Positions 5,604-22,349 of a DNA stretch of 64,000 nucleotides are shown piece after piece. The first letter of the stretch is position 1. Each line of letters begins with the position of its first letter. Source of the DNA: Escherichia coli (lineage in GTDB: Bacteria > Pseudomonadota > Gammaproteobacteria > Enterobacterales > Enterobacteriaceae). The notes under the pieces are model-generated. The model did no database searches. It was not told the DNA's origin and saw only the letters and a program-made list of their open reading frames with translations. The stretch is taken from NCBI RefSeq assembly GCF_003334385.1, contig NZ_QOWN01000016.1. One strand, written 5' to 3'. Made by a program: the position numbers and the translations under genes.

Positions 5604-8600
5604 TTATCCTTTAAAGCAACGGCGGATCACCACAAAGAACACCGGTACGAAGAAGATTGCCAGCAACGTTGCAGAGACCATTCCTCCCATTACCCCGATA
5701 CCCACAGCGTTCTGCGCGCCACTGCCGGCACCGTTACTGATAGCTAGCGGTAATACGCCGAGAATAAAGGCGAGAGAGGTCATCAGGATAGGACGCAGAC
5801 GCATACGTACTGCCATCAGTGTCGCTTCAACAACACCTTTACCCTCTTTCTCCATGAGATCTTTAGCGAACTCAACGATCAAAATAGCGTTTTTGGCCGA
5901 CAAGCCAATTGTCGTTAGCAAGCCCACCATAAAGTAGACGTCATTTTTTTGATTAAAGAGTGTCGCCGCCAGCAGCACGCCGACAATCCCTAACGGCACT
6001 ACCAACATAACCGAGACAGGAATTGACCAGCTTTCATAGAGTGCAGCAAGGCACAGGAAAACAACCACAAAGGAAATTGCTACCAGAGCGGGAGCCTGGT
6101 TTCCCGATAAGCGTTCCTGATACGACATACCCGTCCAGTCATAACCAATGCCCGCAGGTAATTTTGACGCAAGGTTTTCCATCAACGCCATGGCATCGCC
6201 GGAACTGGTTCCTGGCGCGGCTTCCCCCTGAATCTCCATTGACGGCAGACCGTTGTAGCGTTCCAGTCGCGGAGAGCCATACACCCAATGTGAAGTGGTA
6301 AAGGCCGAGAATGGCACCATTTCGCCGTTGGCGCTGCGGACATAAAGTTTATCGACATCTTCTGGCAGCATACGGAATTTGGCATCCGCCTGAACATACA
6401 ACTTTTTCACGCGACCACGGTCGATGAAGTCGTTAACGTAAGTCCCACCCAGCGCCGTTGAAATGGTCTGATTGATGTCAGAAAGTGAAACACCTAATGC
6501 CTGCGCCTTTTCCTGGTCAACTTCCAGTTTAAACTGCGCGGTGTCTTCCAGGCCATTAGGGCGCACGCTGACTAAGCTGGCAGGATGTTGCGCCGCCATA
6601 CCAAGCAACTGGTTACGGGCCTGGGTTAGGGCATCGTGACCCAGCCCAGCCTGATCAATTAACTCAAAGTCGAAACCCGTTGCCGTGCCCAGTTCAACAA
6701 TGGCTGGCATATTGAATGGAATGACAAAACCGTCGCGGATCTTGCCCAATTCCATTTTGGCACGATGGATTACCGCTTCCGCACTGTTTTCGTCACCATT
6801 ACGCTCTTCCCACGGTTTCAGACTGACGAAGGCCATACCGGCGTTTTGTGCCTGGCCGCTGAAGCTAAAGCCGTTAACCGTAAAGACACTTTCAACGTTC
6901 GCTTTCTCGTTCTTCAGATAGTAATCCGTAACTTGATCCAACACTTTTTGCGTCCGCTCTTGCGTCGCGCCAGCGGGTAACTGAATCATGGTCAGAAAGA
7001 CACCCTGATCCTCTTCAGGTAAGAAGGAAGACGGAAGACGTAAAAACAACACCACCATTCCTGCAACAATCAGCGCATAGATCAGTAAATATCGTCCTGT
7101 GGATCCGAGGATTTTGCCGACGCTGTTGGTGTAGTGGTTAACGCTATGATCGAAGGTGGTATTAAACCAACCGAAGAAACCGCCCTTATTTTCGTGATGC
7201 TCAGCAGAGACGGGTTTAAGCAGCGTTGCACATAACGCAGGGGTAAGAATCAATGCCACCAGAACAGAAAGCGCCATTGCCGAAACGATGGTGATAGAGA
7301 ACTGGCGATAAATTGCCCCAGTAGAACCGCCGAAGAATGCCATCGGAATAAATACCGCTGACAGCACCATCGCGATACCCACCAGTGCGCCCTGAATTTG
7401 CGACATCGATTTTTCCGTCGCTTCTTTTGGCGGGAGCTTATCCTCCATCATCACGCGCTTGACGTTCTCCACCACCACTATCGCATCATCGACGAGCAGC
7501 CCGATGGCAAGCACCATCCCGAACATCGTTAGTGTGTTGATGGAGTAACCAAAAGCGGCGAGGATGGCAAACGTCCCTAACAACACCACGGGTACCGCAA
7601 TGGTGGGGATCAGCGTTGCTCGCATATTCTGCAAGAACAGATACATCACCAGGAACACCAGCATAATGGCTTCGAACAGCGTTTTTACCACTTCGTGAAT
7701 AGAAAGCTGGACGAATGGCGTGGTGTCATAAGGGTAGAGAACCTTCATTCCCTGCGGGAAGAATGGCTGTAATTCCGCCAGTTTTGCCTTAATGGCTTTC
7801 GCGGTATCGAGAGCATTCGCGCCGGTTGCCAGCTTAATCCCCAGGCCCGCCGCCGGTTTTCCGTTGATACGAGCGATAACGTTATAGTTTTCACCGCCAA
7901 GTTCAACCCGTGCGACATCTTTCAGGCGTACCACCGAGCCGTCACTGTTTACGCGCAGGGTCACTTTGCCGAATTCTTCCGGATTTTTAAACCGCGTCTG
8001 AGCAATAATCGAGGCGTTCAATTGTTGCCCTGGTAACGCTGGCGTTCCGCCCAACTGTCCGGCAGCGATCTGATCGTTCTGTACCTTCAACTGGTTAATC
8101 ACATCAACCGGTGTCAGTTTATATTTGTTTAGCAGATCGGCATCCAGCCAGATACGCATCGCATACTGTGCGCCGAAAAGCTGTACGTCACCGACGCCAT
8201 TCAGACGGCTAAGCGTATCTTTAACGTTAGAGGCCACATAGTCCGAGATATCGTCCTGTGTGGTGCCTGGGTTATCAGAGACAAAGCCCGCCACCATCAA
8301 ATAGCTGCTACTGGACTTTTCAACACTGATCCCCTGCTGCTGAACCTCCTGCGGCAGCAACGGCGTGGCGAGCTGGAGTTTGTTCTGCACCTGCACTTGC
8401 GCGATATCAGGATCGGTCCCGGACTGGAAGGTAAGGGTAATTGTCACGCTACCGGCGGAATCGCTGGTGGAGGACATATACATCAGGTTATCGATACCGT
8501 TCATATTCTGTTCGATAACCTGCGTCACCGTATCCTGCACGGTCTGCGCATCAGCGCCCGGATAGTTTGCTGAAACAGAAACCGCAGGCGGTGCAATTGT

Positions 8601-16474: not shown

Positions 16475-17824
16475 TTATTTTTCCTGAAGACCGAGTTTTT
16501 TCTCCAGATAGTGGATGTTAGTGCCACCATGCTGGAAGTTCTCGTCATTCATGATGCGGATCTGCAGATCAACGTTGGTTTTGATACCGTCGATGATCAG
16601 CTCCTGCAGCGCATTCTTCATGCGGGCAATCGCCACGTCACGGTTTTCACCGTAGCAAATCAGCTTACCGATCATTGAGTCATAGTACGGCGGTACGGTG
16701 TAGCCCGCGTAGATATGAGACTCCCAACGTACGCCAAAACCGCCAGGTGCGTGGAAACGGGTGATTTTGCCCGGACTTGGCAGGAAGGTGTTCGGATCTT
16801 CGGCGTTGATACGACATTCCACCGCATGGCCGCGAATGTGAACTTCTTCTTGCTTGATCGACAGCGGTTGACCGGCAGCGATACGCAGCTGTTCTTTGAT
16901 CAGGTCAACGCCGGTGATCATTTCTGTAACCGGGTGTTCTACCTGAATACGGGTGTTCATTTCGATGAAATAGAACTCGCCGTTTTCGAACAGGAACTCG
17001 AAAGTACCTGCACCGCGATAGCCGATATCAACACACGCTTTAGCGCAACGTTCGCCGATGTAGCGACGCAGTTCCGGGGTAATGCCCGGTGCTGGCGCTT
17101 CTTCGACCACTTTCTGGTGGCGGCGTTGCATGGAGCAGTCACGTTCCGCCAGATAGATAGCGTTGCCCTGACCGTCAGCCAGTACCTGAATCTCGACGTG
17201 GCGAGGATTTTCCAGGTATTTCTCCATGTAAACCATATCGTTGCTGAAAGCAGCTTTCGCTTCCGCACGGGTCATGGAGATGGATTGTGCCAGTTCAGCG
17301 TCGCCGCGCACTACGCGCATACCGCGACCGCCGCCGCCGCCGGAGGCTTTGATAATCACCGGATAACCAATGCGTTTAGCAATGGCACGGTTTTTATCCA
17401 TATCGTCGCCCAGCGGGCCGTCAGAACCCGGTACGCAAGGGACGCCCGCTTTTTTCATCGCCGCGATTGCGGATACTTTGTCGCCCATCAGGCGAATGGT
17501 TTCTGCTTTCGGGCCAATGAAGATAAAGCCGGAGCGTTCAACCTGCTCGGCAAAGTTGGCGTTCTCGGAGAGGAAGCCGTAACCCGGATGGATTGCTACT
17601 GCGCCGGTGATTTCAGCGGCGCTGATGATTGCCGGGATGTTCAGATAACTTTTTACTGACGGAGCAGGGCCAATACAGACCGTTTCATCTGCCAGTAATA
17701 CGTGTTTTAGATCGCGATCCGCGCTGGAGTGCACAGCGACAGTCTTGATGCCCAGTTCTTTACAGGCACGAAGAATACGCAATGCAATCTCGCCGCGGTT
17801 GGCAATAACAATTTTATCCAGCAT
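16475..17824 (-). CDS. accC: biotin carboxylase subunit of acetyl-CoA carboxylase
   Basis: 449 aa from ATG at 17824 ([16 protein letters not shown]...); ATP-grasp; ORF track adds 13 codons upstream. Confidence 0.95.
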
Positions 17825-17834
17825 GTTCGCCTCG

Positions 17835-18305
17835 TTACTCGATGACGACCAGCGGCTCGTCAAATTCTACCGGTTGTCCACTTTCGACCAGAATTGCTTT
17901 CACGGTACCGGATTTGTCCGCTTCGATCTGGTTCATCATTTTCATGGCTTCAACGATGCACAGGGTATCGCCCACGTTGACTTTCTGACCCACTTCGATG
18001 AACGCTTTTGCGTCCGGGCTTGGGGTGCGGTAGAAAGTACCAACCATCGGGGAACGTACGATGTGACCACTGATTTCCGCTGCTGCTGGCGCTTCCATGG
18101 AAGGAACGGTCGCCGGAGCGGCTGCGTTAGATTGAGCTGGCTGCTGCATCATTGGTGCAGCGTAAGCTTGTTGCATCACAGGGAAACTTGCGGCAGGAGC
18201 TGCACGGCTAATGCGTACTGACTCTTCGCCTTCAGAAATTTCCAGTTCGGAGATGCCTGATTCTTCAACCAGCTCGATCAGTTTTTTAATCTTACGAATA
18301 TCCAT
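17835..18305 (-). CDS. accB: biotin carboxyl carrier protein
   Basis: 156 aa; biotinylation motif EAMKMMN; Pro/Ala-rich linker. Confidence 0.95.
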
Positions 18306-19282
18306 GAGTGGGTTCCGTACTCTTTGTTTAGTGTGATTGTGACAGGCGTTTCACCGCCGTCTGTAAAGCGTATGCCCCGACAGCTGTATGCATAGCGATA
18401 AATTCCAGCAGGCCGGGACGCCGGTCTATTTTGCCCCAGAGTGTCAATGTTAGACTTGACGGACATTGTGCAGCGATCTGCTGCTATCCTCCGGCAAAAA
18501 ACAAAATATACCTTCGTTGCGCCAATGTCACCTTTTCCGCAGCGCAAAAACTGCGTCAGGGAGGACGAGGTCGCACATTATAACGATTTCGTAGCAATTG
18601 GCAGCTAAATACTGGTCTTATCAGGGAAGATAATCAACAGCTAACATGTAAATAACCTTCAACACCGTGTAATTTGCAACAAGCCGCACAATTCACGAAA
18701 TTAGCGCCATCATCGACGGAACTTCTTATAACGTAAGGTGAAAAGCTGAAAAGCCAGCCCTGCGAAGATGAGGGGCTGCAATGAGATAATCTTCACAGAC
18801 CACAAATAATGTAGGGATGCCAGGATCGCGACAAGATAGACGACATTACGCAGCGGTTGCTGGGGATTACCCAATTTTCACTGCATCGTCTGGATAGATG
18901 TGAATGCTAAAGCACGCAAAATTAACCGATTGACAATGCTCAGCATTAAATAGGTTCGAGTGATTAATTTGTAGTCAAACAAAATCAGATTATTCACCCC
19001 ATGGTACCAGAAATAAGTAAGGGGCTAAGCGTAGCGTCGCCCAGGCAAAGCACCATAAACCTAACAGGCGACGGAGGCGTATCAATAATAGCTGTTTAGT
19101 GGAGTATCAATGCGCATCAATTTGTGGTCAGTCGAAATCATGACTTTCCAGTTTGGATGATGTTGTATAACTTCCTGACCAAGGTGTTCGACGAAAGCTG
19201 TCCGGCTAACCGCTTTTCCCGTTAACCGATTGAATAATGATTTCAAAATGAGTTCCCTCTCTTATTATTCCCTGCTAAATGG

Positions 19283-20257
19283 TTAGTTAACCTTCACCAG
19301 CGTGCGACCCTGGATCTGGTTATTAATGATGGCCTCGGCAAAGTTCGGTGCCTCTGACAGAGATATCTCTTTTGCCGCCTGGGTATAGAATGATTCCGGT
19401 AAATCGGCGACCAGTCGCTGCCAGGCTTGTGCGCGGCGTTCTGGTGGCGTCATTACTGAATCCACCCCTTGCAAACGGACATTACGCAGAATAAATGGCA
19501 TGACCGTGGTTGGCAGAGTAAAACCACCCGCCAGACCACAGGCCGCCACGCAGCCGCCGTAATTCATTTGCGCCAGCACTTTTGCCAGCACTTTGTCGCC
19601 AACGGTGTCAATTGCCCCAGCCCAGACTTGTTTTTCCAGAGGACGGGATTCGGCAAACTCATCACGAGGGAGAACACGGCTAGCACCTAAACTTTTCAGA
19701 TATTCATGGGTACTTTCGCGACCGGAAACGGCAACGACCTGATAACCCAACTTATGCAGCAGCGCCACGGCGGTACTGCCGACGCCACCACTGGCACCCG
19801 TCACGACAATCTCCCCGTCCTGCGGGCGAACACCGGCATCTTCCAGCGCCATCACACACAGCATGGCGGTAAAACCGGCAGTACCGATAATCATTGCTTT
19901 ACGCGCGTCCAGCCCTTGCGGCATGGCAACCAGCCAGTCACCTTTCACTCGCGCCTGCTCCGCCAGCCCACCCCAGTGGTTTTCACCAACGCCCCAGCCA
20001 GTGAGTAACACCTCCTGACCGGCATGAAAACGCGGATCTTCGCTGGTGCGTACAGTTCCGGCAAAATCGATCCCAGGAATCATCGGAAAATTACGGATGA
20101 TTTTTCCCTTACCGGTAATCGCCAGCGCATCTTTATAGTTCAGGCTCGACCAGTGAACATCGACCGTGACATCGCCCTCCGGCAGGCGACTTTCGTCCAG
20201 AGTCTGTACTGATGCGAGAGTTTTGCCGTCCTGCTGTTCTAAAAGTAACGCCTGCAT
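19283..20257 (-). CDS. acuI: acrylyl-CoA reductase, MDR superfamily (YhdH)
   Basis: 324 aa, quinone oxidoreductase-like, GxGxxG NAD(P)-binding (VTGASGGVGS). Confidence 0.9.
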   Translation of the reverse strand: MQALLLEQQDGKTLASVQTLDESRLPEGDVTVDVHWSSLNYKDALAITGKGKIIRNFPMIPGIDFAGTVRTSEDPRFHAGQEVLLTGWGVGENHWGGLAEQARVKGDWLVAMPQGLDARKAMIIGTAGFTAMLCVMALEDAGVRPQDGEIVVTGASGGVGSTAVALLHKLGYQVVAVSGRESTHEYLKSLGASRVLPRDEFAESRPLEKQVWAGAIDTVGDKVLAKVLAQMNYGGCVAACGLAGGFTLPTTVMPFILRNVRLQGVDSVMTPPERRAQAWQRLVADLPESFYTQAAKEISLSEAPNFAEAIINNQIQGRTLVKVN

Positions 20258-20408
20258 AAGTGGTCCTCATGTGCATGATGGATTGGAAAATAATTTCTGA
20301 AGACTATACTCGCTAATGGAAAAGCAAAGCCGATGAAGCGCAATAAATTGCGAGATAAATCTGATTTGCTAGTATGCCCGCTTCCTCACTATCGGAGTTA
20401 ACACAAGG

Positions 20409-22349
20409 ATGAGATTAACGACGAAATTTTCGGCCTTTGTTACGCTGCTCACCGGGTTAACAATTTTTGTGACTTTGCTGGGCTGTTCGCTAAGTTTCTA
20501 CAACGCCATTCAGTATAAGTTTAGTCATCGCGTTCAGGCGGTGGCGACGGCGATTGATACCCACCTTGTGTCGAATGACTTCAGCGTATTAAGGCCACAA
20601 ATTACCGAATTAATGATGTCGGCAGATATCGTTCGTGTAGACCTGCTCCATGGTGATAAACAGGTTTATACCCTGGCCAGAAATGGTAGTTATCGTCCAG
20701 TTGGCTCCAGCGATCTGTTTCGCGAACTGAGCGTTCCGTTGATAAAGCATCCGGGGATGTCGTTGCGTCTGGTTTATCAGGATCCGATGGGCAACTATTT
20801 CCATTCGTTGATGACCACCGCGCCGCTCACGGGGGCGATTGGCTTTATCATTGTTATGCTCTTCCTGGCGGTACGCTGGTTACAACGGCAACTTGCCGGG
20901 CAAGAATTGCTGGAAACCCGGGCTACTCGTATCTTAAACGGTGAGCGTGGCTCTAATGTGTTGGGAACCATCTATGAATGGCCGCCCAGAACCAGCAGTG
21001 CGCTGGATACGCTGCTTCGTGAAATTCAGAACGCACGCGAACAACACAGCCGTCTTGATACGCTGATCCGCTCTTATGCCGCCCAGGACGTGAAAACCGG
21101 CCTCAATAACCGACTCTTTTTCGATAATCAGTTAGCAACGTTACTGGAAGATCAGGAGAAAGTAGGTACCCACGGGATCGTGATGATGATTCGTCTGCCG
21201 GATTTCAATATGTTGAGCGATACCTGGGGGCACAGCCAGGTTGAAGAACAGTTCTTCACTCTGACGAATCTGCTGTCGACATTTATGATGCGCTACCCTG
21301 GCGCACTGCTGGCGCGTTACCACCGCAGTGATTTTGCTGCGCTGTTACCGCACCGGACGTTAAAAGAGGCAGAGAGCATCGCCGGTCAGTTAATCAAAGC
21401 CGTTGATACCTTGCCGAACAATAAAATGCTCGATCGCGACGATATGATCCACATTGGTATCTGCGCCTGGCGTAGTGGTCAGGATACCGAGCAGGTAATG
21501 GAACATGCAGAGTCTGCCACGCGTAATGCGGGATTGCAGGGCGGCAATAGCTGGGCTATTTACGATGACTCGTTGCCTGAAAAAGGACGCGGTAATGTTC
21601 GCTGGCGTACGCTTATCGAGCAAATGCTCAGTCGCGGCGGCCCGCGCCTTTATCAAAAACCGGCGGTTACTCGCGAAGGTCAGGTTCATCATCGCGAACT
21701 CATGTGCCGCATCTTCGATGGTAATGAAGAGGTTAGCTCGGCGGAGTATATGCCGATGGTCTTGCAGTTTGGCTTATCGGAAGAGTATGACCGTCTGCAA
21801 ATCAGCCGTCTTATTCCACTATTGCGTTACTGGCCAGAGGAAAATCTGGCGATTCAGGTTACCGTTGAGTCGCTGATTCGCCCGCGTTTTCAGCGTTGGC
21901 TGCGCGATACGTTAATGCAATGTGAAAAATCACAACGAAAACGCATAATTATTGAACTTGCAGAGGCCGATGTAGGTCAACATATCAGTCGTTTACAACC
22001 TGTTATTCGTTTAGTGAATGCTTTAGGGGTACGGGTAGCCGTCAACCAGGCTGGTTTGACGCTGGTAAGTACCAGTTGGATCAAAGAACTTAATGTTGAG
22101 TTACTCAAGCTCCATCCGGGGCTGGTCAGAAACATTGAGAAGCGAACGGAGAACCAGCTGCTGGTTCAAAGCCTGGTGGAAGCCTGCTCCGGGACCAGCA
22201 CCCAGGTTTACGCCACCGGCGTGCGTTCGCGAAGCGAGTGGCAGACCCTGATTCAGCGCGGTGTTACAGGCGGGCAAGGGGATTTTTTCGCGTCCTCACA
22301 GCCACTTGATACTAACGTGAAAAAATATTCACAAAGATACTCGGTTTAA
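20409..22349 (+). CDS. csrD: RNase E specificity factor CsrD (degenerate GGDEF-EAL protein)
   Basis: 646 aa, N-terminal TM segments followed by GGDEF-like and EAL-like regions. Confidence 0.9.
   Translation: MRLTTKFSAFVTLLTGLTIFVTLLGCSLSFYNAIQYKFSHRVQAVATAIDTHLVSNDFSVLRPQITELMMSADIVRVDLLHGDKQVYTLARNGSYRPVGSSDLFRELSVPLIKHPGMSLRLVYQDPMGNYFHSLMTTAPLTGAIGFIIVMLFLAVRWLQRQLAGQELLETRATRILNGERGSNVLGTIYEWPPRTSSALDTLLREIQNAREQHSRLDTLIRSYAAQDVKTGLNNRLFFDNQLATLLEDQEKVGTHGIVMMIRLPDFNMLSDTWGHSQVEEQFFTLTNLLSTFMMRYPGALLARYHRSDFAALLPHRTLKEAESIAGQLIKAVDTLPNNKMLDRDDMIHIGICAWRSGQDTEQVMEHAESATRNAGLQGGNSWAIYDDSLPEKGRGNVRWRTLIEQMLSRGGPRLYQKPAVTREGQVHHRELMCRIFDGNEEVSSAEYMPMVLQFGLSEEYDRLQISRLIPLLRYWPEENLAIQVTVESLIRPRFQRWLRDTLMQCEKSQRKRIIIELAEADVGQHISRLQPVIRLVNALGVRVAVNQAGLTLVSTSWIKELNVELLKLHPGLVRNIEKRTENQLLVQSLVEACSGTSTQVYATGVRSRSEWQTLIQRGVTGGQGDFFASSQPLDTNVKKYSQRYSV

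Follow-up and report, generated by a model that had tools for sequence, protein, structure and literature searches.

The promoter and leader of accBC in Escherichia coli have reportedly been known since the early 1990s, and Li and Cronan (1992/1993) are said to have described this leader as unusually long and as containing an open reading frame (ORF). The dehydroquinase of E. coli comes from aroD (type I), and yrdE has already been used by geneticists as a neutral insertion site. Expression of accBC responds to growth rate and is subject to autoregulation (PMC3896788), the acc operons have been "suggested" to be controlled by FadR (PMC11602165), and yrdF and yrdE are pseudogenes according to a paper in J Bacteriol (PMC7648144). 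In relatives of E. coli the same promoter precedes aroQ, which encodes a type II dehydroquinase of 150 aa and ends 21 nt before accB. The gene order there is csrD-acuI-msrP-msrQ-aroQ-accB-accC in Pseudescherichia vulneris, Klebsiella aerogenes and Atlantibacter; Buttiauxella likewise has msrP-msrQ-aroQ-accB-accC, without acuI, and the msrQ-aroQ-accB synteny is seen in four genera. Citrobacter enshiensis has mreB-csrD-acuI-msrP-msrQ-(393 bp)-accB-accC-yhdT-panF. Klebsiella, Enterobacter, Kluyvera, Yokenella and Cronobacter commonly have AroQ homologs, and none of the best 120 named AroQ hits comes from Escherichia, Salmonella or Citrobacter.

We analysed the gap between acuI and accB in a window of E. 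coli DNA, that is, the whole 64-kb stretch under study, to which all coordinates refer unless K-12 is named. The gap spans 18306..19282, exactly 977 bp, and its boundaries agree base for base with the RefSeq annotation of K-12 MG1655, with which the window is collinear in reversed orientation (a K-12 coordinate x becomes the window coordinate w = 19283 + 3404458 - x); 976 of the 977 bases are identical to K-12, and no indels occur. A homologue of the gap is present in all 5,426 complete E. coli genomes of the collection searched, nearly always as a single copy, and in at least one strain IS1 has inserted into it. A preliminary description, made from the letters alone, had called the interval unusually long and apparently non-coding. 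Its length is confirmed, as is the lack of any ORF of at least 60 aa other than an 89-aa frame at 18278..18547 (-) overlapping the accB start, and no intact gene is found; the gap is not unannotated, however, since the K-12 RefSeq pseudogene features yrdF (b4697) and yrdE (b4646) cover 19246..18710, or 537 of the 977 bp. The same description had guessed at a long accBC leader with its promoter and at a decayed gene remnant, and rightly on both counts: 18306..~18640 contains a sigma-70-type promoter, followed by a leader predicted to be about 266 nt long, and not one but three remnants were found (yrdF', msrQ'/yrdE' and aroQ'), the leader itself being one of them. It is proposed, with high confidence, that in the gap three lost genes (yrdF, msrQ and aroQ) survive as wrecks around a live accBC promoter and leader (Table 1). 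This account builds on homologies, synteny, lesions, allele frequencies and a polymorphism contrast observed at the locus.

Table 1. Features of the acuI-accB gap and its flanks, in window coordinates.
Feature	Position	Strand	Basis or remark
accB	17835..18305	-	
Ancestral aroQ-accB spacer with the accB ribosome-binding region	18306..18327	-	Alignment
aroQ' relic	18328..18466	-	MAFFT against intact aroQ loci, and tblastn
5' part of the leader, ancestral aroQ 5' UTR	18467..18571	-	Aligned to five aroQ-bearing taxa
Core promoter of (aroQ-)accBC	18577..18604	-	Consensus scan and conservation
FadR-operator-like palindrome CTGATAAGACCAG	18612..18624	-	Pattern match; just upstream of the -35 hexamer
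yrdE' pseudogene (whole)	18710..19103	-	K-12 feature b4646, 3404638..3405031
yrdE' 3' part, MsrQ residues 101-195 and native stop	18710..19000	-	tblastn with K-12 MsrQ
+1 frameshift in yrdE'	19001..19007	-	Two HSPs 7 nt apart, against 2 codons expected
yrdE' 5' part, MsrQ residues 69-98, frame shifted relative to the rest	19008..19103	-	tblastn with K-12 MsrQ
yrdF' pseudogene	19104..19246	-	K-12 feature b4697, 3404495..3404637, maps here
acuI-yrdF spacer with the yrdF Shine-Dalgarno-like GAGG	19247..19282	-	Read directly from the sequence
acuI/yhdH	19283..20257	-	
csrD	20409..22349	+	

The pseudogene yrdE' is a broken msrQ. In a tblastn search with K-12 MsrQ (211 aa), residues 69-98 matched 19097..19008 (23/30 identical) and residues 101-195 matched 19000..18716 (64/95 identical), with a joint E-value of 7e-40 for the two collinear matches. 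An in-frame TGA at 18880..18878 (-) replaces Arg141; His91 and His151, which we take to be haem ligands of MsrQ (out of three such histidines in total), are both replaced by Arg in the alignment, and His164 is retained. The last 54 aa match the NCBIfam MsrQ equivalog NF003831 with E = 2.4e-10, at a score of 40 bits that lies below the 130-bit cut-off. A complete MsrQ frame of 199-211 aa is no longer there: only residues 69-195 are left, interrupted by the frameshift and the stop, and the first 68 residues are lost. Judged by these lesions, yrdE' cannot make MsrQ. Database homologs of yrdE' number 1,374 at E<=1e-10, the named ones being annotated as MsrQ or YedZ, and in other strains PGAP places a YedZ ("sulfoxide reductase heme-binding subunit") or MsrQ pseudogene at this site. 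No similarity to msrP was found in the gap of the window (best E=0.6). K-12 has its working msrPQ at 2.04 Mb, adjoining hiuH and hprRS. Because intact msrPQ stands upstream of accB at this locus in the relatives, the piece in E. coli would be what remains of the original msrQ. At the nucleotide level yrdE' is closer to the working K-12 msrQ (76% identity) than to the syntenic msrQ genes of the other genera (63-68%), a pattern that fits a duplication of msrPQ inside the Escherichia lineage, with the original copy decaying afterwards.

The other annotated pseudogene, yrdF', comprises the first 47 codons (143 bp) of a 276-aa DUF1444-like protein, after which the sequence diverges: in the window the gene breaks off at the end of codon 47 and continues into msrQ from about its codon 69, and an ORF of 54 aa (19082..19246 (-)) consists of the stump plus seven foreign codons. 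With 47 codons kept, the window copy falls far short of a full-length YrdF of about 276 aa. Such a full-length yrdF looks present, as traced by an 856-bp segment, in 670 of the 5,426 complete E. coli genomes (12%), where it carries no pseudogene flag in the records inspected, and it occurs also in E. albertii and in a metagenomic contig (L010). Full-length YrdF matches Pfam DUF1444 (PF07285) weakly (i-Evalue 6e-3) and NCBIfam NF010189/PRK13668 weakly as well (E=5e-5, 23 bits against a 221-bit cut-off), both matches covering nearly the full length. The family is very small, with 11 clusters among 5.8 billion. On contig L010, whose YrdF is 76% identical, the order is acuI-yrdF-msrP, msrP being recognised by its MsrP Tat signal sequence, and therefore yrdF appears to have once sat between acuI and msrP. 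Another homolog (63% identical) sits among genes of mobile-element type (KfrA_N, Aca2). The idea that E. coli MsrQ took its C-terminal extension of 12 aa (LRSLFNRL...) from the YrdF N-terminus (LKSLFNRL...) was also considered and rejected, the nucleotide similarity being at chance level, with 44 of 200 shuffles as good.

Two alleles of this region occur within E. coli. The window carries the K-12-type allele (type A); in strain TW08637 (type B), 19003..19103 (101 bp) is replaced by 856 bp according to blastn, making the locus a net 755 bp longer and giving a 276-aa ORF after acuI. The junction between the types, 19002|19003, coincides with the +1 frameshift in yrdE', and the type B junction is shared with E. 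albertii. Type A keeps MsrQ residues 69-98, which are missing from type B, whereas full-length yrdF and scraps of msrP survive in type B but not in type A; in type B msrQ' resumes at about residue 97-101, and a terminator-like hairpin is present. The MsrP-like stretches are short and weak (7/11 identical, not significant alone), and are backed by their position and by the 72% nucleotide identity to the yrdF-msrP region of L010. On the segments compared, no single deletion would turn one allele into the other; since each holds segments that the other lacks, the deletion history is probably more tangled than a simple scheme would have it. A recent gene conversion of 19003..19103 from the working msrQ was considered and rejected, as its identity of 76-82% lies within the range of the rest of yrdE'.

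Downstream of the pseudogenes lies the promoter that would drive accBC. Its -35 hexamer CTGCCA (18604..18599) and -10 hexamer TATAAT (18582..18577) are separated by a 16-nt spacer and match the consensus at 10 of 12 positions, with a predicted transcription start near 18571. We aligned eight taxa (E. coli, E. albertii, Citrobacter, P. vulneris, Buttiauxella, K. aerogenes, Atlantibacter and a metagenomic relative, L014): both hexamers are invariant in seven, with one change in each in Atlantibacter, and a promoter block of about 65 nt is identical across all eight apart from one or two Atlantibacter substitutions. The predicted start gives a leader of about 266 nt, against a start reportedly placed "about 300 bp upstream" by Li and Cronan (1992/93). 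The palindrome CTGATAAGACCAG was scored against what we take to be the FadR operator consensus, a palindrome of the CTGGT...ACCAG type; nothing else in the 64-kb window fits the pattern, for which 0.11 matches would be expected by chance, and the palindrome is invariant in the eight taxa. It is a candidate FadR site.

The leader itself appears to descend from aroQ. Its 5' part corresponds, on alignment, to the aroQ 5' UTR in P. vulneris, Buttiauxella, K. aerogenes, Atlantibacter and L014, and is followed by the aroQ start codon at 18466 and the first ~15-20 codons (18466..~18415), then by a poorly alignable scrap (~18414..18376), and finally by the last 15 codons (18375..18331) and a TAA stop (18330..18328). 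These last 15 codons match residues 136-150 of P. vulneris AroQ with 13/15 identical (tblastn, E=1e-6). Because the middle of the relic aligns so weakly, the number of aroQ deletions is uncertain. About 315 of the 453 bp of aroQ are absent from E. coli; no open aroQ frame exists, and the intact 150-aa catalytic domain is gone. The aroQ Shine-Dalgarno (SD) sequence GGAG is intact in all five aroQ-bearing taxa and mutated in all three that lack aroQ (GCAG, GCAA and GAAG), E. coli having GCAG. The spacer between aroQ and accB is identical in E. coli, E. albertii and Citrobacter, with a 1-nt indel in P. vulneris and Buttiauxella, and the leader architecture is common to E. coli, Citrobacter and E. 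albertii. The 89-aa ORF and a 39-aa ORF (18328..18447) are fossil frames of the aroQ start and end; dismissal of the former as spurious was correct as far as a gene is concerned, but its last 62 codons begin at the relic aroQ ATG and are a fossil rather than the product of chance. Neither in the RefSeq annotation nor in the literature that could be searched did we find the leader described as a relic of aroQ.

Polymorphism divides the gap in two. Among nine type A E. coli strains, segregating sites amount to 9.9-13.9% in yrdE' and 7.7% in yrdF', compared with 10.2% and 5.8% at the third codon positions of acuI and accB, respectively; the 404 bp adjoining accB have 1.0% (4 sites), and the aroQ relic plus spacer has a single segregating site in 161. 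Relative to E. albertii, the promoter block is 98.6% identical, the aroQ relic 96.4% and the 3' part of yrdE' 83.7%. The constraint stops at the msrQ' stop codon, diversity rising to 8-14% upstream of 18710. It follows from the polymorphism and the E. albertii contrast that the pseudogene part evolves neutrally and the accB-proximal part is constrained; a conservation profile was among the checks that the preliminary description had proposed. The low diversity of the aroQ relic, as gauged from these alignments, is a sign of constraint, whatever its purpose. The relic, which is non-coding and yet almost invariant in E. coli and 96% identical to E. albertii, may conceivably have taken on a regulatory role as the leader of accBC, either as an RNA or DNA target of AccB autoregulation or through the 62-codon ORF; we regard such a recruitment as rather doubtful.

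The remnants might, as a first alternative, still encode one or more functional small proteins, the candidates being YrdF' (54 aa, 19246..19082), an MsrQ fragment (54 aa, 18874..18710) and the 62-codon leader ORF (from 18466), which runs 28 nt into accB; we consider this improbable. It is true that yrdF' keeps a start codon (TTG at 19246) 36 bp past acuI, with the SD-like GAGG lying 9 nt before it, and that PGAP calls a 54-aa hypothetical protein there in some strains. Its tail, however, is a product of the deletion junction, the 12% of strains with full-length yrdF lack it, and a Pfam/NCBIfam profile search gave no family match for the 54-aa peptide. The MsrQ fragment would have to start at TTG (18874) without an SD sequence and has lost two of the three presumed haem-ligand histidines, and the pseudogene segments vary at the neutral rate. 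The leader ORF, on which Li and Cronan (1993) reportedly remarked, is open in E. coli, and in E. albertii it is open through two compensating 1-nt indels; yet it has lost its SD sequence (GGAG changed to GCAG), and in Citrobacter the frame ends after 9 codons. A scan for small ORFs (>=10 aa, both strands, SD scoring) yielded no new ORF with a convincing ribosome-binding site, the yrdF' start alone having an SD-like match of more than 4 nt.

A second alternative, an independent sRNA or antisense transcript in the pseudogene stretch that annotation has missed, would find room in the ~540 bp without an intact gene and possible starts at two promoter-like sites on the plus strand (18781..18810 and 19061..19089), and might be suggested by a weak Rfam match to Ysr190, a Yersinia sRNA. 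Apart from the accBC promoter, however, promoter-like sites are at chance level (4 found against 2.2 +/- 1.6 expected), the promoter/terminator scan detected no terminator-like site in the gap, and diversity across yrdF'/yrdE' is at the neutral level. The Ysr190 match (18503..18602 (-)) was the only one obtained when 17500..20600 was searched at a permissive E-value, in which no family attained its gathering threshold; it scores 25.3 bits against 66 (E=0.61) and sits on the promoter and 5' UTR, outside the pseudogenes, being driven by the conserved promoter sequence. Inverted repeats have only short, chance-like arms, the leader folds no better than its shuffles (z = -1.2), and the consensus fold of the eight taxa is weak (-7.9 kcal/mol, few compensatory pairs), too little for claiming a structured element. 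We therefore judge this alternative highly improbable on the points just set against it, and the small protein or sRNA that the preliminary description had also entertained is not supported. That the whole 977 bp is regulatory DNA of accBC (an extended control region plus leader) to which the protein similarities are irrelevant accords with the growth-rate regulation and autoregulation of the operon (PMC3896788) and with the near invariance of the accB-proximal 404 bp, but is almost certainly wrong, given that constraint ends at the msrQ' stop, with 8-14% diversity upstream of 18710, that 12% of strains carry an alternative allele in which 101 bp become 856 bp and at least one has IS1 in the gap, and that intact msrPQ occupies the corresponding DNA in relatives.

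We accordingly return to the three wrecks around a live promoter and propose the following route, whose order of events we infer from the relatives and the lesions. The ancestral order would have been csrD / acuI - (yrdF) - msrP - msrQ - promoter - aroQ - accB - accC. An internal deletion would have gutted aroQ and left behind the promoter, the 5' UTR, the first codons, the last 15 codons and the spacer, so that the remains of aroQ would now form the promoter and the predicted leader of accBC. A second copy of msrPQ, the one beside hiuH and hprRS, would have become the working one, after which the original copy at the accB locus decayed. In the K-12-type allele, a deletion would then have fused codon 47 of yrdF to about codon 69 of the dead msrQ, giving yrdF' and yrdE', which would now drift neutrally and have no function of their own. 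The sigma-70-type promoter, with the FadR-like box just upstream, would drive accBC through the relic leader.

The gap is thus of an ordinary kind, mostly annotated already, and a poor candidate for a new gene or sRNA. Tracing the leader to aroQ adds a little to a known picture in which the promoter, the leader and the pseudogenes already had their place. A gutted aroQ would nevertheless explain in a simple way where the "unusually long leader with an ORF" of accBC, noted long ago, came from, and in work on accBC autoregulation and growth-rate control the ancestral 5' UTR can now be told apart from dead coding sequence within the leader. The msrPQ pair would be a clear case, on a small scale, of genes that relocated while the original copy fell into decay, and the locus has two old deletion alleles segregating within one species. 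The neutral-level diversity of yrdE' also supports the use of yrdE as a neutral insertion site.

When set beside the systems described so far, the gap proves to be the same DNA, at the same mapped coordinates, as the K-12 pseudogenes yrdF (b4697) and yrdE (b4646), without any difference; what is added to the K-12 annotation is the origin of both pieces, their lesions and the second allele with full-length yrdF in 12% of genomes. With MsrQ/YedZ (PF01794, NF003831), yrdE' shares residues 69-195 at 67-77% amino acid identity, an end at the point where the 199-aa enterobacterial MsrQ ends, and a syntenic location between acuI and the accB promoter; it differs in lacking the N-terminal 68 residues and msrP, in its one frameshift and one stop, and in the replacement of His91 and His151. 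The accBC leader as reportedly described by Li and Cronan is similar in having its promoter a few hundred bp upstream of accB and an ORF inside the leader. With the aroQ-accB-accC operon of other Enterobacteriaceae (PF01220), E. coli shares the promoter block and 5' UTR, a start codon in the same position, the last 15 codons and their stop, and a spacer of 21-22 nt before accB, whereas its aroQ is gutted, with the SD sequence mutated, and would persist only as the untranslated leader of accBC.

The gap between accB and acuI, at 18306-19282 in the window, exists in E. coli as two old structural alleles. In type A, carried by the window, by K-12 and by about 88% of genomes, the yrdF stump (yrdF') is joined to MsrQ residue ~69; in type B, present in 670 of the 5,426 E. 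coli genomes and also in E. albertii, yrdF is full length, there are weak msrP-like scraps and a terminator-like hairpin, and msrQ' begins at residue ~97. A single deletion cannot turn type A into type B, nor type B into type A, and the type A frameshift and the type B junction lie only a few nucleotides apart. Further variation is seen in strain 14EC017, which has an IS1-like element annotated somewhere inside its match to query 18200-19400, and in strain 2452, where the same query is matched as two pieces with ~32 bp extra. No terminator was predicted in the window from acuI to the accB promoter; read-through from acuI into the accBC promoter region is therefore possible.

Coordinates of the features compared at the acuI-accB locus and related loci
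Feature	Window	Other sequences	Remarks
YrdF, full length, and homolog		L003 2472-3302; L008 3898-4731	
Type A/type B junction	19002/19003	L003 2303/2304; L007 (E. albertii) 6998/6999	
K-12 msrQ		L004 4484-5119	compared with window 18710-19103 (yrdE')
E. coli-like patch	~18843..18567 (equivalent)	L014 302-577; L015 480-904	gut-metagenome contigs
aroQ Shine-Dalgarno	18480-18476	alignment A3 (aroQ 5' region), columns ~173-181	
62-codon ORF	18278-18466 (-)	L007 (E. albertii) 7533-7721	

Full-length YrdF is a protein of 276 aa that shows only weak likeness to DUF1444, and the family it represents is tiny, numbering 11 clusters in a database of 5.8 billion clusters. A homolog with 63% identity is surrounded by plasmid- or phage-type genes (KfrA_N, Aca2, ResIII), a hint that yrdF came into the acuI-msrP spacer by horizontal transfer.

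The working MsrQ has 211 aa in E. coli and E. albertii; the pseudogene remnant yrdE' ends at the 199-aa position, as do most other enterobacterial MsrQ proteins. At the nucleotide level yrdE' shares 76% identity with the msrQ that works in E. coli and less, 63-68%, with msrQ at the syntenic position in other genera, suggesting that the hiuH-linked copy is a duplicate derived from the acuI-accB locus. An intact msrQ of 196 aa followed by aroQ was found on two independent gut-metagenome contigs. Both carry a patch of ~276 bp, spanning the msrQ 3' end through the -10 box, that is identical to E. coli at 275 of 276 positions; identity in its flanks is just 70-80%. Either the patch came recently from E. 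coli by recombination, or the assemblies are chimeric.

All five taxa that carry aroQ keep its Shine-Dalgarno motif GGAG unchanged, and the motif is differently mutated in E. coli (GCAG), E. albertii (GCAA) and Citrobacter (GAAG), a tidy mark of relaxed selection once aroQ was lost. The 62-codon ORF opens at the ATG of the relic aroQ, and its last 28 nt lie within accB. Its E. albertii equivalent likewise has 62 codons, though -1 and +1 indels sit 27 nt apart, and the Citrobacter leader ORF is closed after 9 codons; the equal length in E. coli and E. albertii is probably due to chance. This comparison bears on the leader ORF that Li and Cronan reportedly mention. Among known RNAs in Rfam, the Yersinia sRNA Ysr190 gave a sub-threshold match (18503-18602, minus strand; 25 bits, E=0.61) that begins within the promoter and takes in ~70 nt at the 5' end of the leader; what it picks up is probably the promoter and 5' UTR of aroQ/accB, conserved in Yersinia, and not an sRNA gene in its own right.
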